A stretch of DNA of 33,401 nt from a virus. Its lineage: Duplodnaviria; Caudoviricetes. Both the position numbers and the translations under genes were made by a program. Every line of letters starts with the position of its first letter. Position 1 is the stretch's first letter. Location of the stretch: IMG/VR virus record IMGVR_UViG_3300032304_000486, positions 1 through 33,401 of that record. One strand, written 5' to 3'. Positions 1 to 27,578 of this stretch are shown in pieces. The notes below the pieces were generated by a model. It did no database searches, was not told the DNA's origin, and saw only the letters and a program-made list of their open reading frames with translations.

Positions 1-1463
1 CCTGTAATCCGCATGACGGTATCTGAAATGCGACGCGTGATTTCAGGGCCAGTCATATCACCTACAAAACGTGCCTGGGCAGTCGCAACACTTGTCCAGT
101 TTTCAGCGATCAATCCCAGGCGCGATGCCAGGCGTCCTTTTTCATCAATGTTCAGCGGCACCAGGTTATCCATTACGCGCTTGATAACGTCAGATGCGGG
201 TATTCCCGATGCTTTAGCGGCAATGCGCTGGAAGTTTAAGTCAGTCAATGCAGATACCGCGGCCGCGCCAAGTTGCGCCGATTGTAGTATTTGACGCAAG
301 CCGGCAAAGCCCCTGGCTACCGTGCCATCGACTGGCGATGCAGTTGATCCATTTAGGATCGCGTACATCGAATCAAACATTCCCATTTGAGAATTGGCCT
401 TATCGACCATTTTTCCTTCGGGATTATTTGCTTCTTTAATCTTGGCGTCTTGCATGACGGTTTGATGGATATAGCGAATAGTCGCATTAGGATTAGGCCC
501 TAGTATCTCCATCATGGATATATCCCGTGACATTCCTTCCAGGTGATTAACCATGGTGACGAACGGTTCAGGGTTTCCAAATTTCTCCTGGTACTCCAGC
601 CAGGCATCAGCATTCTTAAATGATAAGAATCGATGATCCTGGTTACGGCCAGCCAGGGACCGGCCACCACCAGCTCCGGACGGTTTAACCTTATTCCATC
701 CTTCCGTCGCAATAGAATCAAAGACTTGTGCCAGGGCCAGCTCTAATCTTTCGGGCGTAAACTTTAGGCCGCTACGCTCATCGATCATCTTTTCGGGATC
801 TAAACGCTCGCGAATAAAGTTTGTCCACTCTTCGCGTCCAGCCTTGCGTACAAGCATCGAATCATGGATCTGAGGCATACCCCAATCCTTACGATTTGGA
901 ATGGCACCACCGGCCGCATTAAAGCGCTGGCGGGCATAATCGGCCGCAGTTGACCAGGACTGTGCTAATTCTTTTGCGGCGGCCGATCCGGTATCTTCTC
1001 CGAATACTTCGCGCACCAGGTCCTTGGCCATGGCTTTATTGCCCAAGCTACCAGTTGCGCCGCGACGTCTAAAGGTTGCCAGGACGTCATCCATCTTAGA
1101 ATAGATTTGACCGAGTACGGCTTTGCGCCTGGCTTCCACGTTGGAATACTTGGCAAACTCATCTCGATCTAGTAGTGCCTGGGCCGCTTTACCCAAGCTT
1201 TCGCCATTGGCGTACTGGTTTAAATCAAAACTAATCTTTTGCCAGTTGCGGATCTGCAACATTTTGACGCGCTTGCTTTCAATTGCTTCTTTTTGCAATG
1301 CGTCAAACGTATCCTTGGCGGCTTGATTGCTGGCCTGTTCAGGACCCATCTTCGTCGCGTACTCTGCCTCTAGCTCATCGAATAGGCCACGGGCTTTTGC
1401 CGCCTGGTTAGCTGAGATCTTGCCTTCGTTCTCGCCGTTATCAATACATTCTCTAAAGCTCAT
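1..1463 (-). CDS. large internal virion (ejection) protein, runs off the left end of the window
   Basis: Not in the ORF track because it has no stop. ATG at 1461-1463 overlaps the upstream TGA (ATGA coupling). Manual translation MSFRECIDNGENEGKISANQAAKARGLFDELE...QRFNAAGGAIPNRKDWGMPQIHD...DHRFLSFKNADAWLEYQEKFG...EILGPNP stays open to base 1. It lies after the tail tube and other internal virion genes. Confidence 0.85.
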   Translation of the reverse strand, partial: MSFRECIDNGENEGKISANQAAKARGLFDELEAEYATKMGPEQASNQAAKDTFDALQKEAIESKRVKMLQIRNWQKISFDLNQYANGESLGKAAQALLDRDEFAKYSNVEARRKAVLGQIYSKMDDVLATFRRRGATGSLGNKAMAKDLVREVFGEDTGSAAAKELAQSWSTAADYARQRFNAAGGAIPNRKDWGMPQIHDSMLVRKAGREEWTNFIRERLDPEKMIDERSGLKFTPERLELALAQVFDSIATEGWNKVKPSGAGGGRSLAGRNQDHRFLSFKNADAWLEYQEKFGNPEPFVTMVNHLEGMSRDISMMEILGPNPNATIRYIHQTVMQDAKIKEANNPEGKMVDKANSQMGMFDSMYAILNGSTASPVDGTVARGFAGLRQILQSAQLGAAAVSALTDLNFQRIAAKASGIPASDVIKRVMDNLVPLNIDEKGRLASRLGLIAENWTSVATAQARFVGDMTGPEITRRISDTVMRIT

Positions 1464-4400
1464 TTTACGCACCCTATCAAGCGCTCTAACATAGACTTGT
1501 CTTGTTCAAAGTCTGCCAAAATTTCTCTTACAGTTGTCACTTCCGATACTCTTTCACCAGTTTGTGGATCAATTCTTTCCGCTACCGGTATCTCTAAATC
1601 CATTAGATCCTGATTGCGCTTGCCACCAGTACCGATCTGTGCTAATGTTAAGTCAGGAGTGTCCTTTATGAAATCATCTAAAAAAGTAGAATTTCTCGAT
1701 GTTGAAGGTATCCCGGTGACTTTAGGTTCGGTTCCCGGTTTCGCTGGCCTTTGCGCCGCCTGGGATAAATCTTCTCCAAGATCCTTTCCAGCTGATTCAG
1801 CGTTACGTAACGGTGCGCCGATTGATAAGGCCGAGTTCGAGCGATTGAGAATGGTTGCCAGCGCTTCATCGTAAGCCTGTGACATCTCAGCATTGATCTT
1901 CTCGATCTGTGCTTTTTCAGCTTTAGTAGGTTGACGATTCTCACTAGAGATTACGCGCATCAATCCATCACGCACTTCATACGCATCATGATATTTATCT
2001 TTGATTGCCATAAATTCAGGGGTGCTGATTTGCACTTCTGCAATATGGCCATCAATCTCAACGTTCATCTTGATGTCGCGATAACCACCGTCCAAAGCTT
2101 TGATTTGTGGATCGAGTAAATTTCTAAAGCCGCTATCTAATACGTTGTAGGTATTACGCAATTCTTTTAATGCGACACCAGCTTGTTGAAAGTTATCAAC
2201 GACAATAGTTGAGCGCAATAAATCTCTAATTTTGCTGGCATCACCAGCATAGTCAAATAGAATTTTTTCTACTGCACGGCTTGATCCTTTTAGATCTGCG
2301 TCTTTGTATTCGCCATTAACTAGGTTAGCAATCTCGCGATTAACTCTGTCAAAATTTTCTTTTCTGATTGCCGCGTCCTGGTACAAGTTTCGCAATACTT
2401 CCTGATCTTGTGGTGCAAGCTTAATGATGTCATCTTCATTTAATGACTTAGCAACATACTCATCAACGGTAATTGGTTTGCCGCCGCCAGGGATCTCATC
2501 TAGCAATGAGTTTTGCATAAGATCGCCCTGGGCTTTTGCACCAGCTGATCCAGGGCCTTCATCAAAAGTTTTTAGCTCTTCTGTGCCTGGTTCTGCGATT
2601 CGATTGTTTTGCGCCGGAGTTGTGAAATCGCCGCGATCTCCGCCATTTGGTACCCTTTCATAACTCCCGTCCTCAATTGCTCTCCGGACACTTTCGGTAA
2701 ACTCGCGGACGTAAGCTTCAGTTTTGGTTCCGCCCCCGTCTTTCCACGCCTTGGCGATTCGGGTGAGATTGTCTGAGATGGGTCCCCGGACGTTTGCGTT
2801 ATTTTCAATGATAGCGATTGCTTTGCCATAAATAGCCTCTTTTTCTTCGTTAGTCATTTTGGCCAAAGTGTTTCCGGCCTTCTCAATATCAGTTGCGTTT
2901 TTTACTAAGGTCGCAAACAGTTCGCGATCCTTACGCATTTCTTTCATGGCGCGATCAAGTATCTTGGCCCGCTCCAGGAATAAACTTTCTGCAATATCTT
3001 CGTCGCCAAATAATCCGCCTTGTTCAGTTTTTATAAAACCGGCCTCTCTTGCCTGGCGTACGATTTGCTCTGCCTGGATCGCATTTGCTGGTTCCAAGCG
3101 TTTGAGTAATTGAAGAATTGCAAGTTGCTGAGTTTCTTCTGTAATGTATCGGCCAACAATTGCGCCATAGTGTGGCGGCACTACATCATTAACGACTGCG
3201 TTAAATGCTTTAGGACCAAGTGTCGAAAGTTCATTCGCTTGCTTTACAAACTGCGAACGTGGCGGCAATGACTTAATTAGTTCAGGCGCGTCTCTTAGTA
3301 TCTTGGCCGCATCGACCAGGGTGCCAGTACCTTCTGCCAGGTTTTTTCCAGCGGCCGATGCCCTGGCATACGCTGGAGTTGCACCATCTACTTCGCGAAT
3401 TTTAAAAGCATAAATCTGAATGTCTTGCGTCGGATCTGCTTCTTGCAAGCGTTTTGCTAATGCCAGGCGTTGATGGCCATCAGCAATAAATGTACGGCCA
3501 TCTGCAAATTCATAAACGATTGCCGTATTTGCTTTGACCGGATCCCACTTGCTGATGTCTTTTAATCTTTCTGTAACGCCCAGGACATCGCCACCAGCTT
3601 TAAACTGAAATAGCTCTGCATTGACCAAGAGATCTTTTGGCTTGTACGCAAAAATCTCATTGTTTAAATTGTCATGAAAATAAATATCAGTAGAGCGAAC
3701 AATTGCGCTTTCAGGCGGCGCAGTTGTGATCTTAGTTGAATCGCCATTATTTACGGCGTTGTAGGATTGATCGATGCGGGCATTATGTTCTAAGTTGCCG
3801 GCGTCATCCTTTAAAACATTGCCTTGATTTGTGGTGTCATAAATACCATCCATCTCTTTCATCAGCTTTACATCGGGATCCATCTCATACGGACGACCCT
3901 CTTTAGCGGCCTTGGCTTTGCCTAGCGCCTCAATGCCATTGATGAGTTGATTTTTAGTAAATTGGAATGCGGGTTTTGCACCCATTAAAACGCCGGTGAC
4001 TGCACCAGCTCCAGCGGCGGCCATTCCCACATTAGTAAAAAATGTCTTGTAATCGTACGGAAGATCGAGTTGCTTATACCAGTCTGCGACTTCTGTTTGA
4101 ATGACTGCTTCTGATCCAGCTCCAATAACTGCCTGGCGTAATATTTCTTTTGCTATGTTGCTGGATCCACCACTAACTACCATGGCCGCAAGGTTTGGCG
4201 GATCAGTTATTGATGAAACCGCGCCGCCAATAAACTCTCCAATTAAGCCGGTTGTTGTTTGGCGAGACGCTACATCGACGTTAACGTCTCCGGCTTTAAC
4301 CGCGCTCTTTTTTGCCCTTTCAAATATAACGTCATTATCAAGGTTAATAAGATCAGGAAAGACGTCAGGTTGTTGCTTTACAAAATCCAATATTTGTTTT

Positions 4401-4681
4401 GAAGAATAGTTGTAACCCCTGATTGGCGTATCAGCGGATGCCGCGTAACCACCAAGATAATTGCCTGGGTTAATAAATTTTTTTCCAGTTTTCTGTTGTA
4501 TCTCCTGGACAATTGGATCCCATTGTTCGCGCAAGCTTATGGGGCGAGAATCACTACGATTAAGTCTTAAAGTCGCCTGGTATGCCGCATCATAATTTTC
4601 TAAAAAGCCAGTATCCTCTCCACCACCAAGGGGCTTGAATGGAGTTGCCGTTGGGTTTATTTCGTCAAAAACGAAACTCAT
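1460..4681 (-). CDS. polyvalent internal virion protein with a ParB-like domain and a RelA/SpoT-type nucleotide/pyrophosphate transferase domain
   Basis: 1073 aa, translationally coupled at both ends within the ejection-protein cluster, with Gly/Ala-rich hydrophobic N-terminal segments. ParB-like motif AIVYEFADGRTFIADGHQRLALA at ~3300-3650. RelA/SpoT-like motifs DLKGSSRAVEK / RDLLRSTIV / GYRDIKMNV / AEVQIST / HDAYE at ~1860-2420. Confidence 0.8.
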   Translation of the reverse strand: MSFVFDEINPTATPFKPLGGGEDTGFLENYDAAYQATLRLNRSDSRPISLREQWDPIVQEIQQKTGKKFINPGNYLGGYAASADTPIRGYNYSSKQILDFVKQQPDVFPDLINLDNDVIFERAKKSAVKAGDVNVDVASRQTTTGLIGEFIGGAVSSITDPPNLAAMVVSGGSSNIAKEILRQAVIGAGSEAVIQTEVADWYKQLDLPYDYKTFFTNVGMAAAGAGAVTGVLMGAKPAFQFTKNQLINGIEALGKAKAAKEGRPYEMDPDVKLMKEMDGIYDTTNQGNVLKDDAGNLEHNARIDQSYNAVNNGDSTKITTAPPESAIVRSTDIYFHDNLNNEIFAYKPKDLLVNAELFQFKAGGDVLGVTERLKDISKWDPVKANTAIVYEFADGRTFIADGHQRLALAKRLQEADPTQDIQIYAFKIREVDGATPAYARASAAGKNLAEGTGTLVDAAKILRDAPELIKSLPPRSQFVKQANELSTLGPKAFNAVVNDVVPPHYGAIVGRYITEETQQLAILQLLKRLEPANAIQAEQIVRQAREAGFIKTEQGGLFGDEDIAESLFLERAKILDRAMKEMRKDRELFATLVKNATDIEKAGNTLAKMTNEEKEAIYGKAIAIIENNANVRGPISDNLTRIAKAWKDGGGTKTEAYVREFTESVRRAIEDGSYERVPNGGDRGDFTTPAQNNRIAEPGTEELKTFDEGPGSAGAKAQGDLMQNSLLDEIPGGGKPITVDEYVAKSLNEDDIIKLAPQDQEVLRNLYQDAAIRKENFDRVNREIANLVNGEYKDADLKGSSRAVEKILFDYAGDASKIRDLLRSTIVVDNFQQAGVALKELRNTYNVLDSGFRNLLDPQIKALDGGYRDIKMNVEIDGHIAEVQISTPEFMAIKDKYHDAYEVRDGLMRVISSENRQPTKAEKAQIEKINAEMSQAYDEALATILNRSNSALSIGAPLRNAESAGKDLGEDLSQAAQRPAKPGTEPKVTGIPSTSRNSTFLDDFIKDTPDLTLAQIGTGGKRNQDLMDLEIPVAERIDPQTGERVSEVTTVREILADFEQDKSMLERLIGCVK
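1620..1648 (+). promoter_or_regulatory. sigma70-type promoter for the nested antisense gene
   Basis: TTGCCA (1620-1625), 17 bp, TAATGT (1643-1648) preceded by a TGn extended -10; AGGAG RBS at 1655-1659. Confidence 0.6.
1668..1874 (+). CDS. small antisense nested protein (68 aa), candidate antitoxin/immunity protein for the RelA/SpoT domain
   Basis: AGGAG 8 nt before ATG1668, with a promoter just upstream. Globular-looking sequence MKSSKKVEFLDVEGIPVTLGSVPGFAGLCAAWDKSSPRSFPADSALRNGAPIDKAEFERLRMVASASS ends where the synthetase domain ends on the other strand. Confidence 0.6.
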   Translation: MKSSKKVEFLDVEGIPVTLGSVPGFAGLCAAWDKSSPRSFPADSALRNGAPIDKAEFERLRMVASASS

Positions 4682-6936
4682 TTGATACCTTCTCTTTGTT
4701 TAACGCGTTCAGCAAGATCCCTAAAGTTAACTGTCAGGGCGGATCTATCCTTGATCGTAAATGCTAATGGACTTGTCTTGCCGCGATAATCCTCGTAATA
4801 CCATACGGCGCGATCTGCATCGATAAATGCGGGATAACCTTTACGTAAGCGTTCAATAGTAAACTTTCTGCCCTGGTCATCTTCGGGTAAACCATTGGAG
4901 ACGGCGGCAAAATCATCATACGTTGCGCGCTTAATGATGTCTTTAAAACTGTCCTGGGCGACGTTGCCTGGAATTGGAATGCGTGTACCTTGATATTCGA
5001 TGATGCCGCCGTAGGCCTTTCCATTTTTAGCGATTGTCATTCCGGATGCTTCCTGGAATGCTTGCTTATACATATCATCATCAAAAGTTGATTTGCCAGC
5101 TCTGATTGCGCGCTCGTTATAAATATTGTCAGCCGTTGTAATAATTGCGGCGCGTGTTTTTGGCGCAAAAGAGTAAGCGCTACCAAGTAGATCGGCAGTA
5201 ACACTCTTTTTGATTGATGCGTCACCTGAACCCTCAAACGGTTTATTGCCAGCTTGGGCTTGCTTCATGCCATTAAGGGCATCAAAAACTGTTTGCTTAT
5301 TTGCGCCTGAAAGAATCAGCCCGCCAGCATGAGCAAACTCAGGGGCAAACTTTGAGATTTCGCCCATGGCATTTCTTGATTCTTTTCCAAATCCTTGATT
5401 CATTACGGCAAGCAAAGATATCTGCTGGTCCGTACTGGCAGTTTGCAAAAATGTAGTTAATGCGCCAGCTTCGTCCTGGGAGAAATACTTTGGCGCTATG
5501 CTCATATTGGCCGCAAAAGTTTTAGATTGCGTAATGCGCTCACTAATTTGCTTTGTTAAATCTATCGGAGCCGCCGCAAAATTAAGTGTTTTAACTTCGG
5601 TAAATCCAGTTTGATTCATGTAGCTAACTGGATCTTTTTCCAGCATTGCAGTTTTGTTGCTTAATGATTTTTGCGCTACATCGATCAGCATTGCTTGTTC
5701 AAGAGTTGCTCCACCAGTTGTTTTTGACTGTGCATCGCGAACCCAGTCTCCCAGTTGAATGGGCGACATCTTATTAAAGGCAATAGAATTTTGACGCAAT
5801 ACACTTAAATAATTAACCTGGCGCATTGTGGGATCATTTGCCGGTAATCCTAGTTGACGGGCGCGATTTTGTATTTCGTTTACTACGCCCTCACTTGGCA
5901 CCTGGCCAAGAGTGATGATACGTAATGATTCGCTTACATCCGTCTTTAACTCTGTACGCAACGCTCTAAATTGTGCGTCCCTGGCACGTAGATCCGCCTC
6001 GATCTCATTGACCAGGGCGCCCATTCTGTTGACATCAATGCCGCGGGTAACGCGATTTTGTTTTAATGGACTGCCTTCTTTATCGTATAGCTCGCCAATA
6101 GGACCGCGGCCCAGGTCAGCTTGGACTTCTTTTAAGAATGCGGCTTTGTTTGGCGCTCTCTCATATTCTTTTCTAAAGCGCGCCATGTGAGCTTGCTCTG
6201 TGACGCTTTGCATTTGACGCTCTACTTCTACCGGACCAAATCCGCCGGCAATAGCAAATTGCTTAATAGATTGCAATTCTTGAAATAGGATCTGTTCTGC
6301 ATTGGCTATTCCGCTAGGAAAAATTCTTATAGCGTCTTGACTACGTTGTTCTAATCCAGCCAGGGTTGTTGCTTTTAATTGTTGTGCGACACGATCGTTA
6401 TGCTTTTCTGAAATTTCCAGGAATGCAACGTTTTTCATGCGATCTAAATCGCCCCCAACACGGCCACGCAATCTAGGGTCAAGCAATCCTGTTAATGATT
6501 CCAGGCCATCGCGTACGTCAGATGCTTCTGATAAGAATTGAATTGGATCAGAATTTGGATCGTTCTTAAAGGTATTAAGTTTTTCGCTTAAAAGACGACG
6601 ACCATCATTTTGTAATTGCAATGCGACTAATTCATTGGCTTGCTCGTATGCCGCCTTATCAAAAGCAGAGCGAGGCATTCCACTTTCTTTTGTAGCTTTC
6701 AATACTTGTTGCGCTTTTTCTGCCGTATCTACTGAGGCGCGACCTTTTTCCTCGGCTTGTTCCATACCAATCTTGCCGGCATATTCAATTACTGCATTAA
6801 GCGAGCGTTGTTGCGCTTCAGCCAAGTTACGGCTTTCTCGCATGATCGGACCATAATCGACGCCAGGCATTTGAGCCGGCCTAAATGGGTCAACGGAAAC
6901 GCCCGTTGATTGATATCTTGGAAGTCTGTCTGCCAT
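4678..6936 (-). CDS. internal virion (ejection) protein
   Basis: 752 aa, helical A/Q/E/K-rich, N-terminus MADRLPRYQ; positioned between the small ejection protein and the polyvalent protein. Confidence 0.7.
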   Translation of the reverse strand: MADRLPRYQSTGVSVDPFRPAQMPGVDYGPIMRESRNLAEAQQRSLNAVIEYAGKIGMEQAEEKGRASVDTAEKAQQVLKATKESGMPRSAFDKAAYEQANELVALQLQNDGRRLLSEKLNTFKNDPNSDPIQFLSEASDVRDGLESLTGLLDPRLRGRVGGDLDRMKNVAFLEISEKHNDRVAQQLKATTLAGLEQRSQDAIRIFPSGIANAEQILFQELQSIKQFAIAGGFGPVEVERQMQSVTEQAHMARFRKEYERAPNKAAFLKEVQADLGRGPIGELYDKEGSPLKQNRVTRGIDVNRMGALVNEIEADLRARDAQFRALRTELKTDVSESLRIITLGQVPSEGVVNEIQNRARQLGLPANDPTMRQVNYLSVLRQNSIAFNKMSPIQLGDWVRDAQSKTTGGATLEQAMLIDVAQKSLSNKTAMLEKDPVSYMNQTGFTEVKTLNFAAAPIDLTKQISERITQSKTFAANMSIAPKYFSQDEAGALTTFLQTASTDQQISLLAVMNQGFGKESRNAMGEISKFAPEFAHAGGLILSGANKQTVFDALNGMKQAQAGNKPFEGSGDASIKKSVTADLLGSAYSFAPKTRAAIITTADNIYNERAIRAGKSTFDDDMYKQAFQEASGMTIAKNGKAYGGIIEYQGTRIPIPGNVAQDSFKDIIKRATYDDFAAVSNGLPEDDQGRKFTIERLRKGYPAFIDADRAVWYYEDYRGKTSPLAFTIKDRSALTVNFRDLAERVKQREGIK

Positions 6937-6945
6937 GATTATCCT

Positions 6946-7449
6946 TTATCCGGTCCTGGAATATAACATTCCAGCCTGGCCAACCGTGCCGATTGCCTGG
7001 TACATACCAGCTTGTTTTGCCGCCGCTCCTGATGCGCGCAAAATGTCTGCGTTTGCCGCTCCGGAATACCTATAAACGTTTGCCTGGAATCCAGCAGATG
7101 AAGATGCTAGTTTTGCATTTTCCTGGGATAGATCAAAATCGGTATAACCTTCGCGTAATGCGTAAGTTTGTAATGATCCAGCTGATCCACTAAATGGATC
7201 AATTGCACCGGCACCGGATCTTGCTCTTACAGTTGAAAGAGTGCGATTGATGTTTGTAAGTGTTTTTACGCCTTCTTGGCGAGCGCGAATTGCTTCGGTA
7301 CGTCCTTGCATTTCAGCTTGTTGAGCTTGAAAATTTGCCTGTATCTTAGCTTGTTCAGCCTGGGCGTTATAAATTTTTTGCTGGGTTTGACCCTGTTGAT
7401 ATTGCCCGTAGGCGGATACCAGCATTGCGGCGACTGCGACGGCGGCCAT
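6946..7449 (-). CDS. small internal virion protein (T7 gp14-like position)
   Basis: 167 aa, Ala/Gln/Gly-rich with hydrophobic ends, immediately downstream of tail tube B. Confidence 0.7.
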   Translation of the reverse strand: MAAVAVAAMLVSAYGQYQQGQTQQKIYNAQAEQAKIQANFQAQQAEMQGRTEAIRARQEGVKTLTNINRTLSTVRARSGAGAIDPFSGSAGSLQTYALREGYTDFDLSQENAKLASSSAGFQANVYRYSGAANADILRASGAAAKQAGMYQAIGTVGQAGMLYSRTG

Positions 7450-14582: not shown

Positions 14583-14837
14583 TTACGCTAAAGTATTTTG
14601 ACCTGGGCCAGCACCGCCGCCCAATGTCGTTTGATTTTGACCAAGGCCAGCTGAACGCTCCTGGCTAAACAAAAGCCTGGTACCCATACGGCGACGGGCG
14701 CGGGTATTGGCCGCCACTTTTGTCTCTTCTGAAGTTGCTTGAGTTGGTTCTGCCGCTTTTGGTGCCGGTGCCGCTACTGCTTCAACCGCTCTTGCTACTG
14801 GTGCGCTTACGCTTGGACCACTAAATACTCCGCCCAT
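14583..14837 (-). CDS. small virion protein, paralog 1
   Basis: MGGVFSGPS...RARRRMGTRLLFSQER; AGGAG RBS. Confidence 0.7.
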   Translation of the reverse strand: MGGVFSGPSVSAPVARAVEAVAAPAPKAAEPTQATSEETKVAANTRARRRMGTRLLFSQERSAGLGQNQTTLGGGAGPGQNTLA

Positions 14838-15324
14838 GATTTAATCTCCTATACATAAAATGCGATTCACCCGTAGGGCCAAAGCCCTTCATTTCGGATT
14901 CCTTTTCGAAGTATAAGAACTCTGCCCATTTTGTCGCGCGTACATTTGACGAACGCACGATGATTTGAATGCGCCGTAGTTGCATAGTGGTTTCAGCCCA
15001 ATCAAAAAATTGCCTGGCACAACGGCATAACGGTATCGTCACGGTATCAATATCCTTATCGGGGACCATCCAGGCCTCTGCTAACCCTGGCCAAATAGGA
15101 ATAATCCCAAAAGAAAGCATCGGTTTGCCGTAATACAGTCCGGTAAATGCTGGCCCCATGCTGGTTTGGTGCTTTAATCGGTCCAGCCAATCAGGAATAT
15201 GCGCCCTGGCATCGAGATCATGCTCGTTAAGATTCATCAAAGCGACGTGACCGTAGAAAAAAGGGACAAGTTTTCCCCCTTCCGGTAGCCGCACCTTAGA
15301 AGTGAAGTTAGTCGTATCGATCAT
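14821..15324 (-). CDS. GNAT-fold/acetyltransferase-like virion assembly protein
   Basis: FGIIPIWPGLAEAWM, LRRIQIIV, KWAEFLYFEKES.MKGFGP.G; directly after terL. Confidence 0.6.
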   Translation of the reverse strand: MIDTTNFTSKVRLPEGGKLVPFFYGHVALMNLNEHDLDARAHIPDWLDRLKHQTSMGPAFTGLYYGKPMLSFGIIPIWPGLAEAWMVPDKDIDTVTIPLCRCARQFFDWAETTMQLRRIQIIVRSSNVRATKWAEFLYFEKESEMKGFGPTGESHFMYRRLNHGRSI

Positions 15325-23840: not shown

Positions 23841-24428
23841 ATGAAAAATTATTTCAGTTGTGCAGACACCGCCAAGATTATTCGCCAGGTCCTTAAAGAA
23901 TCATTCCCAGGCGTTAAGTTCAGCGTCAAGTCCAGCACCTACTCGATGGGTGCCAGCATCACCGTTCGGTACCAGGACGGGCCTACTGCCGACGCAGTAA
24001 AAGCCGCAGTCTCGATCTTCGAGGCGTCCTACTTCGACGGGATGCAAGACTACAAAGGCCAAAGATACTCCGCGATCGACGGCCAGGAAGTTAGCTTCGG
24101 CGCCGACTACGTGTTTGTTGATCGTCAGATCAGCGACGAGTTGTACGCCGCGGCCTTAGACGCTCTGTACGAAAAGTTTGCCGGTAACTTCCGAGACGAC
24201 CCGCTTCCACGTGTGACCGTCGCCGATGTTAAGAATGGCGCGTCATTCTGCCGCGAAATCCCTGGCATGAGTAACGGTTTATACGGCGGGTTCAATAGAC
24301 GCCTGGAAGAAGTTGTCAAAGAGCTGGACGCCGACTTCCCGGTTCAGCAGAGCGCGACGCTCGCCAGGATCACCAGCCTGGGCGATGACGGGTACGGTCA
24401 AGGTTGTGTCGGTAGGTTAGCCGCATGA
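23841..24428 (+). CDS. LPD29-domain protein
   Basis: DTAKIIRQVLKESFPGVKFSVKS..YS.G.SI.V...DGP...FDGMQDY; AGGAG RBS. Confidence 0.75.
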   Translation: MKNYFSCADTAKIIRQVLKESFPGVKFSVKSSTYSMGASITVRYQDGPTADAVKAAVSIFEASYFDGMQDYKGQRYSAIDGQEVSFGADYVFVDRQISDELYAAALDALYEKFAGNFRDDPLPRVTVADVKNGASFCREIPGMSNGLYGGFNRRLEEVVKELDADFPVQQSATLARITSLGDDGYGQGCVGRLAA

Positions 24429-24673
24429 AGTTGGCGATCCTACGCCGGACCGTGTTCCAGGGAGATGAGGTCCGTCTCCCGATGGCGGTTGTCCTGGCCA
24501 AGCGCTTGGACGTTCGCGAGTACGCGACGTTCTTGCAAGACCAGGGCGGCGCAATGTACGCGGGACTTTATTCCAGGGACTACGAGGCGGCATTCGGTGA
24601 GTACGAGATCCGTTGCCGCGCCGCGAGTTCAGTCAACGATCCAGGTAGAGAAATCAGCGAGGTGAAATTATGA
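24425..24673 (+). CDS. hypothetical protein
   Basis: 82 aa, ATGA-coupled on both sides. Confidence 0.6.
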   Translation: MKLAILRRTVFQGDEVRLPMAVVLAKRLDVREYATFLQDQGGAMYAGLYSRDYEAAFGEYEIRCRAASSVNDPGREISEVKL

Positions 24674-25356
24674 AAGTGATTGCGTATTACCGTGTGAGTA
24701 CCAAGAAACAAGGCGAGAGCGGCCTGGGTTTAGAGGCCCAAAAAAATACCATCAATCGATTCCTGGCCAGCTCACCCTATGAGCTAGTGTCCGAGTATGT
24801 TGAGATCGAAAGCGGCCGCAAGACTGACAAGCGCAGACCACAATTGCGCGCGGCCCTGGAGCAATGCGAAAGAGAAGGCGCGACCCTGATGATTGCCAAG
24901 CTTGACCGTCTAACCCGTAACGTCGGATTTTTGACTACGCTCTTGGATCGCCAGGTCCCGATCATGGCGCTCGATATGCCAAACCTTCAGGACCCAGCGA
25001 TGAGCCGATTCATTCTCCAGCTGATGGCCAACGTGGCAGAGCTAGAGCGCGCTCAGATTTCTGACCGTACTAAGAAGGCCCTGGCGGCGCGCAAGGCCAG
25101 GGGCATGACATTGGGTTCACCTACACCAGCCAACGGCGCCCAGGCCGGGGGATTGGCTACGGCGGGGCAAGCAAACGAGTTCGCTTCCCAGGTTTACCCG
25201 GTGATTGCAGAGTTGCGCGAGTTCGGTTGCAAGACCCTGGAGAAAATTGCCCAGGGTTTGAGTGCGAGAGGAATTGCAACGGCCACCGGCAAAAGAGCCT
25301 GGTCGATTAGTGCGGTTCGTAATGTTGTTAATAGATACGAGGGAGCGTTAGCATGA
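24670..25356 (+). CDS. serine recombinase (resolvase-type catalytic domain plus short DNA-binding domain)
   Basis: YYRVST..Q, ESGR...RPQL, AKLDRLTRN, AELER..IS.RTK.AL...K.RG..LG. Confidence 0.92.
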   Translation: MKVIAYYRVSTKKQGESGLGLEAQKNTINRFLASSPYELVSEYVEIESGRKTDKRRPQLRAALEQCEREGATLMIAKLDRLTRNVGFLTTLLDRQVPIMALDMPNLQDPAMSRFILQLMANVAELERAQISDRTKKALAARKARGMTLGSPTPANGAQAGGLATAGQANEFASQVYPVIAELREFGCKTLEKIAQGLSARGIATATGKRAWSISAVRNVVNRYEGALA

Positions 25357-25874
25357 GTAACTTAATTTCTAGAGCAGTTCAGTTTGCGGACCAGGCGCAT
25401 GATGGTCAGGTGCGTAAGTTTTCCGGGGTGCCGTACATCGCTCACCCTATGGAAGTGATGCAGATTGTCCGCGGTGTTTGTAGTGATGATGATGTCCTGG
25501 CCGCCGCAGTTTTGCATGATGTCATTGAGGATTGCAAAGTAACTTACACCGACCTGGTGATCGAGTTCAACGAAAGAGTTGCGCGCCTGGTGTACCAGGT
25601 AACGAATGCCGCCGACAAGTCAGACGGTGATCGTATGTCCAGGGCGTACATCAATCGCACGATCCTATCGAATGCAAGCGCCGAGGCGCAGACGATTAAG
25701 CTGGCCGATATCATTTCAAATCTTGGCACGATTGAGCTGGCCTTTGAATGTGATCCAGTATGGGCCGCGATGTACCTGGAAGAAAAGATCGACACAATCA
25801 ACGTGTTAACCAGGGGCAATATTCAGTTAATCAAAAGAGCGAGATCTCTCGCGGCGAGGGGAATATTGCAATGA
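25353..25874 (+). CDS. SpoT/Mesh1-type HD hydrolase (small alarmone hydrolase)
   Basis: AHDGQVRKFSGVPYIAHP, AAAVLHDVIED, VA.LV..VT, IKLADIISN. Confidence 0.85.
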   Translation: MSNLISRAVQFADQAHDGQVRKFSGVPYIAHPMEVMQIVRGVCSDDDVLAAAVLHDVIEDCKVTYTDLVIEFNERVARLVYQVTNAADKSDGDRMSRAYINRTILSNASAEAQTIKLADIISNLGTIELAFECDPVWAAMYLEEKIDTINVLTRGNIQLIKRARSLAARGILQ

Positions 25875-27115: not shown

Positions 27116-27360
27116 TGAAAATAAAATCCTATTTCCAGGAAAGACTAGAGCATCATATCGAGGCCAGGAAGGCGGAGAAAAACTTAGAGCCAATTCCTTT
27201 CGCGGGCCACGTGTGCGATCAATGCGGCAAGACTTTAGAGATCGACCAGGTGCATACGTGCAGTCCGCAAGTGAAGTCCCTGGCGCAGTTGGCCAACGAG
27301 TTCGAGGATAAATACAACGAGAAGATGGGCCGGTCAGGTGTGAGATGGGCGGGCGACTAA
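27115..27360 (+). CDS. hypothetical protein
   Basis: 81 aa, TAATG-coupled, contains CDQC..HTC. Confidence 0.55.
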   Translation: MKIKSYFQERLEHHIEARKAEKNLEPIPFAGHVCDQCGKTLEIDQVHTCSPQVKSLAQLANEFEDKYNEKMGRSGVRWAGD

Positions 27361-27578
27361 TGAAACTTTCACCCACTCCAAAGCAAAAAAGATTGCTGGA
27401 TTTCTTATTGAAATTTCATGCAGATCATGGGGTATTCCCTAGTACCAGGGAGATTGGTACGGCCCTGGGATACTCCAGTCCCTCTACCGTTCATGCCATC
27501 ATGCACAGATTAGAGCGCCGCGGATTGATTAGGATCAAACCATACTTGACCAGGGGAATCGAGATTGTGGTAGATTAA
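27360..27578 (+). CDS. LexA-like winged-HTH DNA-binding protein lacking a peptidase domain
   Basis: TPKQKRLLDFL......G.FPSTREIG.ALG.SSPSTVH.....LERRGLI......RGIEI; start at the TAATG overlap. Confidence 0.85.
   Translation: MKLSPTPKQKRLLDFLLKFHADHGVFPSTREIGTALGYSSPSTVHAIMHRLERRGLIRIKPYLTRGIEIVVD

Follow-up and report, generated by a model that had tools for sequence, protein, structure and literature searches.

A predicted alarmone synthetase within an ejection-type podophage protein and a conserved antisense gene nested behind it

Introduction

RelA/SpoT domains and Zeta-like kinases have been described in the polyvalent proteins of phages, for which an alarmone-like response and a shutdown at entry were proposed (Iyer et al. 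2017, PMC5512222). The present analysis concerns such a domain in a podophage sequence of 33,401 nucleotides (IMG/VR record IMGVR_UViG_3300032304_000486, positions 1 to 33,401), this whole stretch being referred to below as the window. There, a predicted alarmone synthetase lies inside P0001, a 1073-amino acid (aa) multidomain core/ejection-type protein, and a short antisense gene, whose product is predicted to be a Tis1-like immunity protein, is nested in the linker behind it. An original prediction, made from the letters of the window, had proposed that the enzyme is injected with the DNA and acts on the host at entry. Its statement that RelA/SpoT domains occur in polyvalent proteins agrees with Iyer et al.; the nested antisense gene, the Zeta-kinase alternative and a hydrolase encoded elsewhere in the genome had been overlooked.

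Like P0001, the polyvalent proteins of Iyer et al. combine a RelA/SpoT homologue (RSH) domain with a ParB-like domain in a late multidomain polypeptide of virion context. The carriers named in that article are Spirochaete and epsilonproteobacterial prophages and MuF fusions, unlike the epsilon15-type carrier of the window, and the terms 'antisense' and 'opposite strand' do not occur in its main text (supplements not included).

The polymorphic toxin systems composed of MuF-Apk2, IapK (BcTis1) and Aph1 have been characterised (PMC10083569; PMC12226406) and share with the window a phage Tas1-like synthetase on a head protein, an adjacent small gene for a Tis1-like immunity protein (predicted in the window) and an optional hydrolase. 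The two arrangements nevertheless differ in several respects. The Apk2 carrier is MuF and that of the window an epsilon15-type core protein; no MuF was found on P0001, since no Pfam family matched over the full protein and its PHROG matches are not MuF. The Apk2 toxin is C-terminal, that of the window internal. While iapK and aph1 directly follow the Apk2 toxin on the same strand, the next same-strand gene in the window encodes a gp17-like core protein, the putative immunity gene being antisense and nested. The syn3 motif reads GxN in Apk2 vs. GYRD in the window, and Aph1 adjoins its toxin whereas the window hydrolase is 23 kb away and, by eye, is without the Aph1 Asp.

The Tas1-Tis1 complex (6OX6) is the top structural match for both window models, at 22% identity for the synthetase and 15% for its partner. 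Tas1 is a PAAR/type VI secretion effector making (p)ppApp, unlike the core-protein domain of the window. VpEAS/RelV and AaEAS, two exported alarmone synthetases (EAS; PMC12691689), belong to the same clade, the syn2 to syn4 motifs of the RIMD entry taken as VpEAS being DLARATI, GYRDLN and AEVQ; unlike the window synthetase, they are exported by Sec or by a type VII secretion system. In the survey of that article, the export-associated domains listed include a single phage carrier, MuF. The idea of an injected synthetase is therefore a member of a known theme. What appears to be new is the predicted immunity gene nested in antisense, along with the in-frame cassette and the carrier of epsilon15 type, none of which was found in the literature searched, mainly at the level of titles and abstract openings.

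The synthetase domain

The alarmone synthetase domain, assigned to the Tas1/EAS clade from its sequence, fold and conserved residues, covers aa 748-944 of P0001 (1850..2440, minus strand). The five RSH motifs named in the original prediction were all recovered in a single frame of the open reading frame (ORF) 1460-4681 (minus strand), namely LKGSSRAVEK at nucleotides (nt) 2264-2293, RDLLRSTI at 2204-2227, GYRDIKMN at 2063-2086, AEVQI at 2027-2041 and HDAYE at 1976-1990. Tas1 (6OX6_A) was the only PDB sequence match of the domain, with E-values of 2.6e-7 for the single sequence and 1.5e-22 for a 35-sequence profile. The AlphaFold2 model (pLDDT 89.7) displays the SYNTH fold, a four-stranded sheet flanked by helices, and Foldseek placed Tas1 6OX6_A first (E 3e-8, TM 0.64), followed by SaEAS 8VX3 (TM 0.65-0.70) and then by RelA/SAS structures, with CapRel at rank 50 (E 9.6e-4).

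Residues R802, K806, D820, R823, G866-Y867-R868-D869, E882, Q884 and H898 are invariant in 35/35 aligned homologues, and K798 is kept in 34 of the 35. Judged by R802, K806, D820, R823, E882 and Q884, the catalytic site appears intact rather than dead. The profile and structure searches recommended as a check gave a divided answer: Pfam RelA_SpoT (PF04607) did not match the window domain even at E ≤ 10, while the Tas1, SaEAS, RelA and SAS fold matches supported the assignment. Because the relatives P0042, P0072 and P0101 exceed the Pfam cut-off, others matching weakly, the missing match reflects divergence from the Pfam model. The domain is thus an RSH-type synthetase of the Tas1/RelV/EAS clade with intact catalytic residues, its activity being predicted from sequence and model.

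The synthetase family comprises 1,692 clusters at 50% identity (E ≤ 0.001), and a scan of genome contigs gave two synthetase loci, of which one was informative (L103, an alphaproteobacterial contig from a metagenome-assembled genome). The domain recurs fused to virion parts, i.e. portal, MuF, SLT lysozyme and ddrB-ParB polyvalent proteins. In unrelated phages, the same synthetase was seen fused to, or directly behind, Phage_portal_3 proteins (L088, L090, L091 and L094).

The nested antisense gene

The antisense gene has 68 codons (1668..1874, plus strand) and spans aa 936-1005 of P0001. Its stop overlaps the last helix of the synthetase, and the gene is nested in the linker behind the domain, which is unusually conserved. 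A Shine-Dalgarno (SD) sequence, AGGAG (1655..1659, plus strand), stands 8 nt upstream of the ATG. A sigma70-like promoter candidate, TTGCCA-N17-TAATGT (1620..1648, plus strand), has a TG one base ahead of its -10 hexamer; the spacing and the distance to the ATG are equal in many homologues, and the candidate is near-consensus in L057 and L127.

The distribution of the antisense ORF was analysed on 40 of 148 synthetase loci, namely those that shared less than 90% identity, contained the whole last helix and had 400 nt of downstream sequence. An antisense ORF of 50-90 codons, ending at the 3' end of the domain in one register, was present in 38 of the 40 loci vs. 157 of 565 control anchors, and an SD-like motif preceded it in 34 of the 40 vs. 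16 of 565, the loci being related and the counts hence those of non-independent events. The ORF of L139 seems to be truncated. In L088, L090, L091 and L121, whose synthetase is C-terminal, the antisense gene persists, convergent and free-standing. Outside the 40 loci, the divergent synthetases L055, L057 and L058 possess their own SD-led antisense ORF with a near-consensus promoter, which in the L055 group could not be aligned to the window antisense family. By comparison, none of seven loci with a Zeta-like kinase in the slot of the synthetase (six recognised by their Pfam Zeta match and L060 by its likeness to L059) showed an antisense ORF of 45-110 codons preceded by an SD motif in the final kilobase, the region searched. 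The ORF is thus genetically linked to the 3' end of the synthetase (38/40 synthetase loci vs. 0/7 Zeta-slot loci). Of five further loci without the synthetase, three yielded candidates starting with TTG, none of them related to the antisense family.

A trace of the overlap was also sought in the sense frame, with a profile built from eight loci. Among 150 representatives, 35 of which have a C-terminal synthetase, it matched directly behind the domain in 94 of the 115 with an internal synthetase, and nowhere else there. According to the 54 of 150 representatives scanned, the carriers with the trace include ddrB-ParB, SLT, amidase, LPD22, LPD38, ART and DUF2213 proteins, and those with a C-terminal synthetase include portal, MuF and InPase proteins. 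In a search of 5.8 billion clusters, the antisense protein had been called by gene finders only once. A different arrangement was observed in the cultured Bordetella phage PHB04 (L105:3077-5342), where the portal is followed by a same-strand triad of synthetase, 69-codon gene and hydrolase; the synthetase, with syn3 GYRDLM, and the 69-codon gene are annotated as hypothetical, and the window antisense protein could not be aligned to the 69-aa product.

For the 33 loci with a nested gene, nucleotide entropy was 0.98 at the first antisense codon position, 0.75 at the second and 1.58 at the third (P = 3e-4 for position 1 vs. 2). The entropy minimum in the overlap corresponds to sense position 1, as opposed to sense position 2 in the synthetase region (1.03 vs. 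0.81), and the same inversion was found among eight close relatives (0.020 vs. 0.052). Moreover, Trp32 of the antisense protein is kept in 35 of 38 sequences and pins a base whose change would be silent in the sense frame. The ratio of nonsynonymous to synonymous polymorphism (pN/pS) fails to separate the sense and antisense frames in this register (0.09 vs. 0.11). Stop-codon avoidance in the antisense frame (0/82 vs. 221/573) was discarded as separate evidence, the ORFs having been pre-selected as open. On the pattern of substitutions, selection acts on the antisense frame, as in a conserved gene, and the ORF is very probably a real gene.

The antisense protein was modelled with a pLDDT of 84.9. 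VIA-align ranked Tis1 first among the 177 chains aligned by Foldseek and first of 48,161 representatives (Z 4.2, root-mean-square deviation 4.3, 60/68 residues aligned), a middling score that lies less than one Z from rank 2 and is weak when taken alone. The match carries weight because it was predicted before the search and because of the linkage to a Tas1-like toxin. Foldseek itself returned nothing significant for the model, with Tis1 at rank 15 (E 3.5; query TM-score 0.39, the highest listed), and Tis1 was not matched at the level of sequence or profile; nothing usable was obtained from the PDB, PADLOC, NCBIfam, PHROGs or Atlas. The antisense product is probably the immunity protein of the synthetase, predicted to be Tis1-like and to bind the domain.

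Carrier protein and module exchange

P0001 (1460..4681, minus strand) lies within a late head-tail block and overlaps both of its neighbours (1460-1472 and 4678-4681), which belong to internal-virion families, in line with the coupling noticed in the original prediction. Downstream is the gp17 equivalent (3..1472, minus strand; phrog_684), clipped by the window edge; upstream are the epsilon15 gp15 equivalent (4678..6936, minus strand; phrog_992) and a small internal virion protein, the gp14 equivalent (6946..7449, minus strand; phrog_418). Since PHROGs 418, 992 and 684 are common to these three neighbours and to the epsilon15 gp14, gp15 and gp17 equivalents of phiV10, P0001 occupies the epsilon15/phiV10 gp16 position.

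The N-terminal carrier domain of P0001 (3653..4681, minus strand) exists as a stand-alone protein of 384-390 aa in L062 and L063. It is 27% identical to the short L063 orthologue, which consists of this domain only and matches phrog_342, an internal virion protein (E 1.3e-7). P0001 has one weak hydrophobic segment, beginning at aa 214. The next region (2600..3649, minus strand; phrog_10691 E 1.8e-59, phrog_21 E 5.7e-17) contains an IADGHQR motif, from which we take it to be a ParB/Srx-like domain; it has no Pfam ParB match, and Pfam ddrB-ParB is present in many other synthetase carriers. A conserved C-terminal segment follows the synthetase domain. In L066, the same synthetase cassette sits inside a true phrog_1145 protein (E 2e-37), the family of the phiV10 gp16 equivalent. 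Carrier, ParB-like and synthetase domains are thus joined in a single late polypeptide of virion context and subject to mosaic exchange, as in polyvalent proteins.

Epsilon15 ejects internal virion proteins, and the C-terminal part of T7 gp16 (gp16-C) gets to the cytoplasm (PMC8954989). By analogy, and from its gene position, P0001 is likely a capsid-core protein ejected into the host with the DNA, and its synthetase domain is probably packaged and delivered to the cytoplasm.

Compared with the window, L001 and L002 are 80-82% identical over the synthetase domain and 97-99% identical over the ParB-like region, the C-terminal segment and the next gene. Pfam Zeta_toxin was found in 6 of 16 ejection-position proteins (20 proteins scanned), and in L051, L056, L059, L061 and L065 the Zeta domain occupies the location of the window synthetase. 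On a 15-row tree built from the ParB-like region, carriers of Zeta and carriers of the synthetase are interspersed within a clade with 99/99 support and again outside it, where L055 (synthetase) is paired with L056 (Zeta) at 89/87; L065 forms a long branch whose placement is unsure. These comparisons, which include the presence/absence survey across relatives recommended as a check, identify at the sequence level a swappable module, the place of which is taken by a Zeta-like kinase in other relatives. They support the swapped-in nature of the domain, which the CCWGG depletion first put forward for it does not. There is indeed a single site (at 2377) in 561 bp, but the depletion is not significant: the rest of the gene has 6.4 sites per kb, in place of the background of more than 10 per kb that had been stated, giving 3.6 expected sites (Poisson P(≤1) = 0.13), and 18% of the 561-bp windows between 1.5 and 12 kb have one site or none.

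Other contents of this position were also observed. The Zeta-toxin-like kinases occur in L061:6687-10010, L051, L056, L059, L065 and L070, with no SD-led antisense ORF found behind them. A free-standing PD-(D/E)XK nuclease gene lies between the minimal 384-aa carrier and the gp17-like gene (L062:9186-9998). In L048:6279-10010, as in P0014 and P0030, an extra insert of ~170 aa without Pfam match separates the ParB-like region from the synthetase, possibly as another effector domain.

Proposed mechanism and alternatives

Taken together, we propose with a probability of about 0.65 that P0001 is an alarmone toxin delivered by the virion and that its immunity gene is nested within it in antisense. 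P0001 would be packaged and ejected like the epsilon15 and T7 core proteins, its C-terminal half reaching the cytoplasm, where a few enzyme copies could produce an alarmone burst that stalls host transcription or growth at entry. The antisense gene, having a putative promoter of its own, would be expressed independently of the late operon. By binding the acceptor site in the manner of Tis1, its product would end the burst; it would also shield the cell during late synthesis of the core protein, and lysogens against kin. A separate hydrolase, if present, would clear residual alarmone. Since a reverse-strand gene sharing third codon positions leaves the sense frame open, the pair of toxin and antidote can be transferred in frame, as a single cassette, to internal sites of multidomain virion proteins. 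There is perhaps an even chance that this represents a widespread, unannotated phage cassette, made of a synthetase and a reverse-strand Tis1-like gene with its own promoter, pluggable in frame anywhere in a virion polyprotein. Under the cassette reading, podophages would, at similar odds, inject a timed (p)ppGpp pulse through the ejection machinery and then switch it off, the seemingly low-complexity linker of the polyvalent protein being a hidden immunity gene.

The small alarmone hydrolase of the window is an HD-domain protein (25353..25874, plus strand; Pfam HD_4 E 3.5e-16), with Lmo0812, SpoT and 7QOC as best PDB matches and Aph1 (7SMG) scoring below Lmo0812 and 7QOC. Its gene, unlinked to that of the synthetase at ~23 kb, lies in a plus-strand block behind an LPD29 gene (23841-24428) and a serine recombinase gene (24670-25356), the latter overlapped by 4 nt. 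The hydrolase is present in 6 of 18 records; among the three complete ones, both synthetase genomes are positive and the Zeta genome is negative. In L091 and L092, a hydrolase lies ~2 kb downstream of the synthetase.

Besides the relatedness of the loci and the modest Tis1 match, several points weigh against a virion-delivered toxin with nested immunity. Of the 40 loci, both L016, where the synthetase is fused to a portal, and L105 (phage PHB04) lack the antisense ORF, and a strict consensus promoter scan did not list the candidate at 1620..1648. P0001 has no detectable similarity to the gp16 equivalent of phiV10 (phrog_1145), the carriers not being alignable, nor has its N-terminal carrier domain any to cultured phages; its virion location therefore rests on gene order. 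The hydrolase is found in 6 of 31 records of a wider set, including the Zeta-slot phage G023, and, among distant synthetase phages, in 3 of 20 over the cut-off and one of five near-complete genomes. Regarding the product, Tis1-like antitoxins have been reported for (pp)pApp synthetases (PMC11782079), and motif swaps in Apk2 left its specificity unchanged (PMC12226406), which argues against (p)ppGpp. A strict hydrolase-synthetase linkage was rejected in view of G023 and the near-complete genomes, and the hydrolase is an accessory, not tied to the synthetase.

From its motifs, the synthetase is predicted to make (p)ppGpp with roughly one chance in two and (p)ppApp with a somewhat smaller one, the formation of both being improbable and an action on tRNA very improbable. 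The Apk2 signatures are GxN in syn3, RYT in syn2 and YH in syn4 (PMC12226406), instead of which the window synthetase has GYRDIK, RST and EVQIS; syn3 of Tas1 is GYSGVN. The only V. parahaemolyticus RIMD and A. azurea entries in the supplements of PMC12691689, taken to be VpEAS and AaEAS, read GYRDLN and GYRDLQ, and both enzymes are reported as (p)ppGpp-specific. Hence (p)ppGpp is favoured, because the GYRD syn3 of the window matches VpEAS and AaEAS and not the GxN of Apk. The foremost alternative, possible but rather doubtful, is an Apk-type (p)ppApp synthetase draining ATP, i.e. an Apk2/IapK/Aph1 system moved onto an ejection protein. In its favour are Tas1 as the nearest solved structure, the reported (pp)pApp context of Tis1-like antitoxins, and the combination of toxin, small immunity gene and hydrolase, which is the plan of Apk2; yet GxN, RYT and YH are absent, GYRD is kept in 35/35 homologues as in the (p)ppGpp-specific enzymes, and the hydrolase has an Arg (QVRKFSG) at the Aph1 D24/R43 position, as placed by eye.

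It is unlikely that the locus is instead a toxin-antitoxin, abortive-infection or addiction unit acting in the lysogen or the producer cell, with the synthetase cleaved off or undelivered. A LexA-like repressor and a serine recombinase are encoded in the genome, the role of MuF toxins is itself unresolved, and P0001 is assigned to the virion by gene order, all of which would suit such a unit. Recurrent fusion to portal, MuF, SLT lysozyme and ddrB-ParB proteins speaks for delivery, as do the position in the late head-tail block and the conserved C-terminal segment behind the domain.

Less likely still, the antisense ORF would be a by-product of a conserved sense linker, or a gene without immunity function or an antisense RNA. 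About 28% of control anchors also give an open antisense frame of 50-90 codons, and the protein has a single gene-caller record and no family match, but this explanation sits poorly with the SD enrichment, the persistence past the sense stop, the codon-position inversion, the fixed Trp, the absence from Zeta-slot loci and the top rank of Tis1. Pyrophosphorylation of tRNA CCA ends as by FaRel2 or CapRel, which the original prediction had listed among possible activities, is highly improbable in spite of the common superfamily and the CapRel fold match, given that such toxins are neutralised by pZFD antitoxins with YXXY (PMC11782079), that the window partner contains no Tyr and looks Tis1-like, and that the fold groups with Tas1 and SaEAS ahead of CapRel.

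How the producer survives making and packaging a toxic enzyme that sits midway along a structural protein has had no clear answer so far for polyvalent proteins, and a nested antisense immunity gene would give one. If true, polymorphic toxin domains would be freed from the C-terminus. Although annotation hardly ever picks up the antisense gene, a large majority of diverse proteins bear its trace behind the domain, and the linkers behind other effector domains of polyvalent proteins may likewise conceal immunity genes. Should the product be (p)ppGpp, the virion would deliver a trigger of the stringent response that carries its own off switch, and this would bear on the purpose of Apk2/MuF-type phage toxins.

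Genome context

The window is a near-complete podophage genome, the close relatives measuring ~35 kb, and its head-tail block is of the T7/epsilon15 type, with capsid, scaffold, portal, adaptor and nozzle. From its repressor and recombinase, a temperate lifestyle is plausible. The LexA-like repressor (27345-27578, plus strand; TIGR00498 E 3.4e-12) consists of a DNA-binding domain without the peptidase domain. A 167-aa gene behind the terminase (14821-15324, minus strand), distant from the core operon, weakly matches phrog_308, an internal virion protein. As for sequence composition, CCAGG (164 vs. 114 expected), CCTGG (149 vs. 98 expected) and AGCT (ratio 1.41) are over-represented genome-wide in the window.

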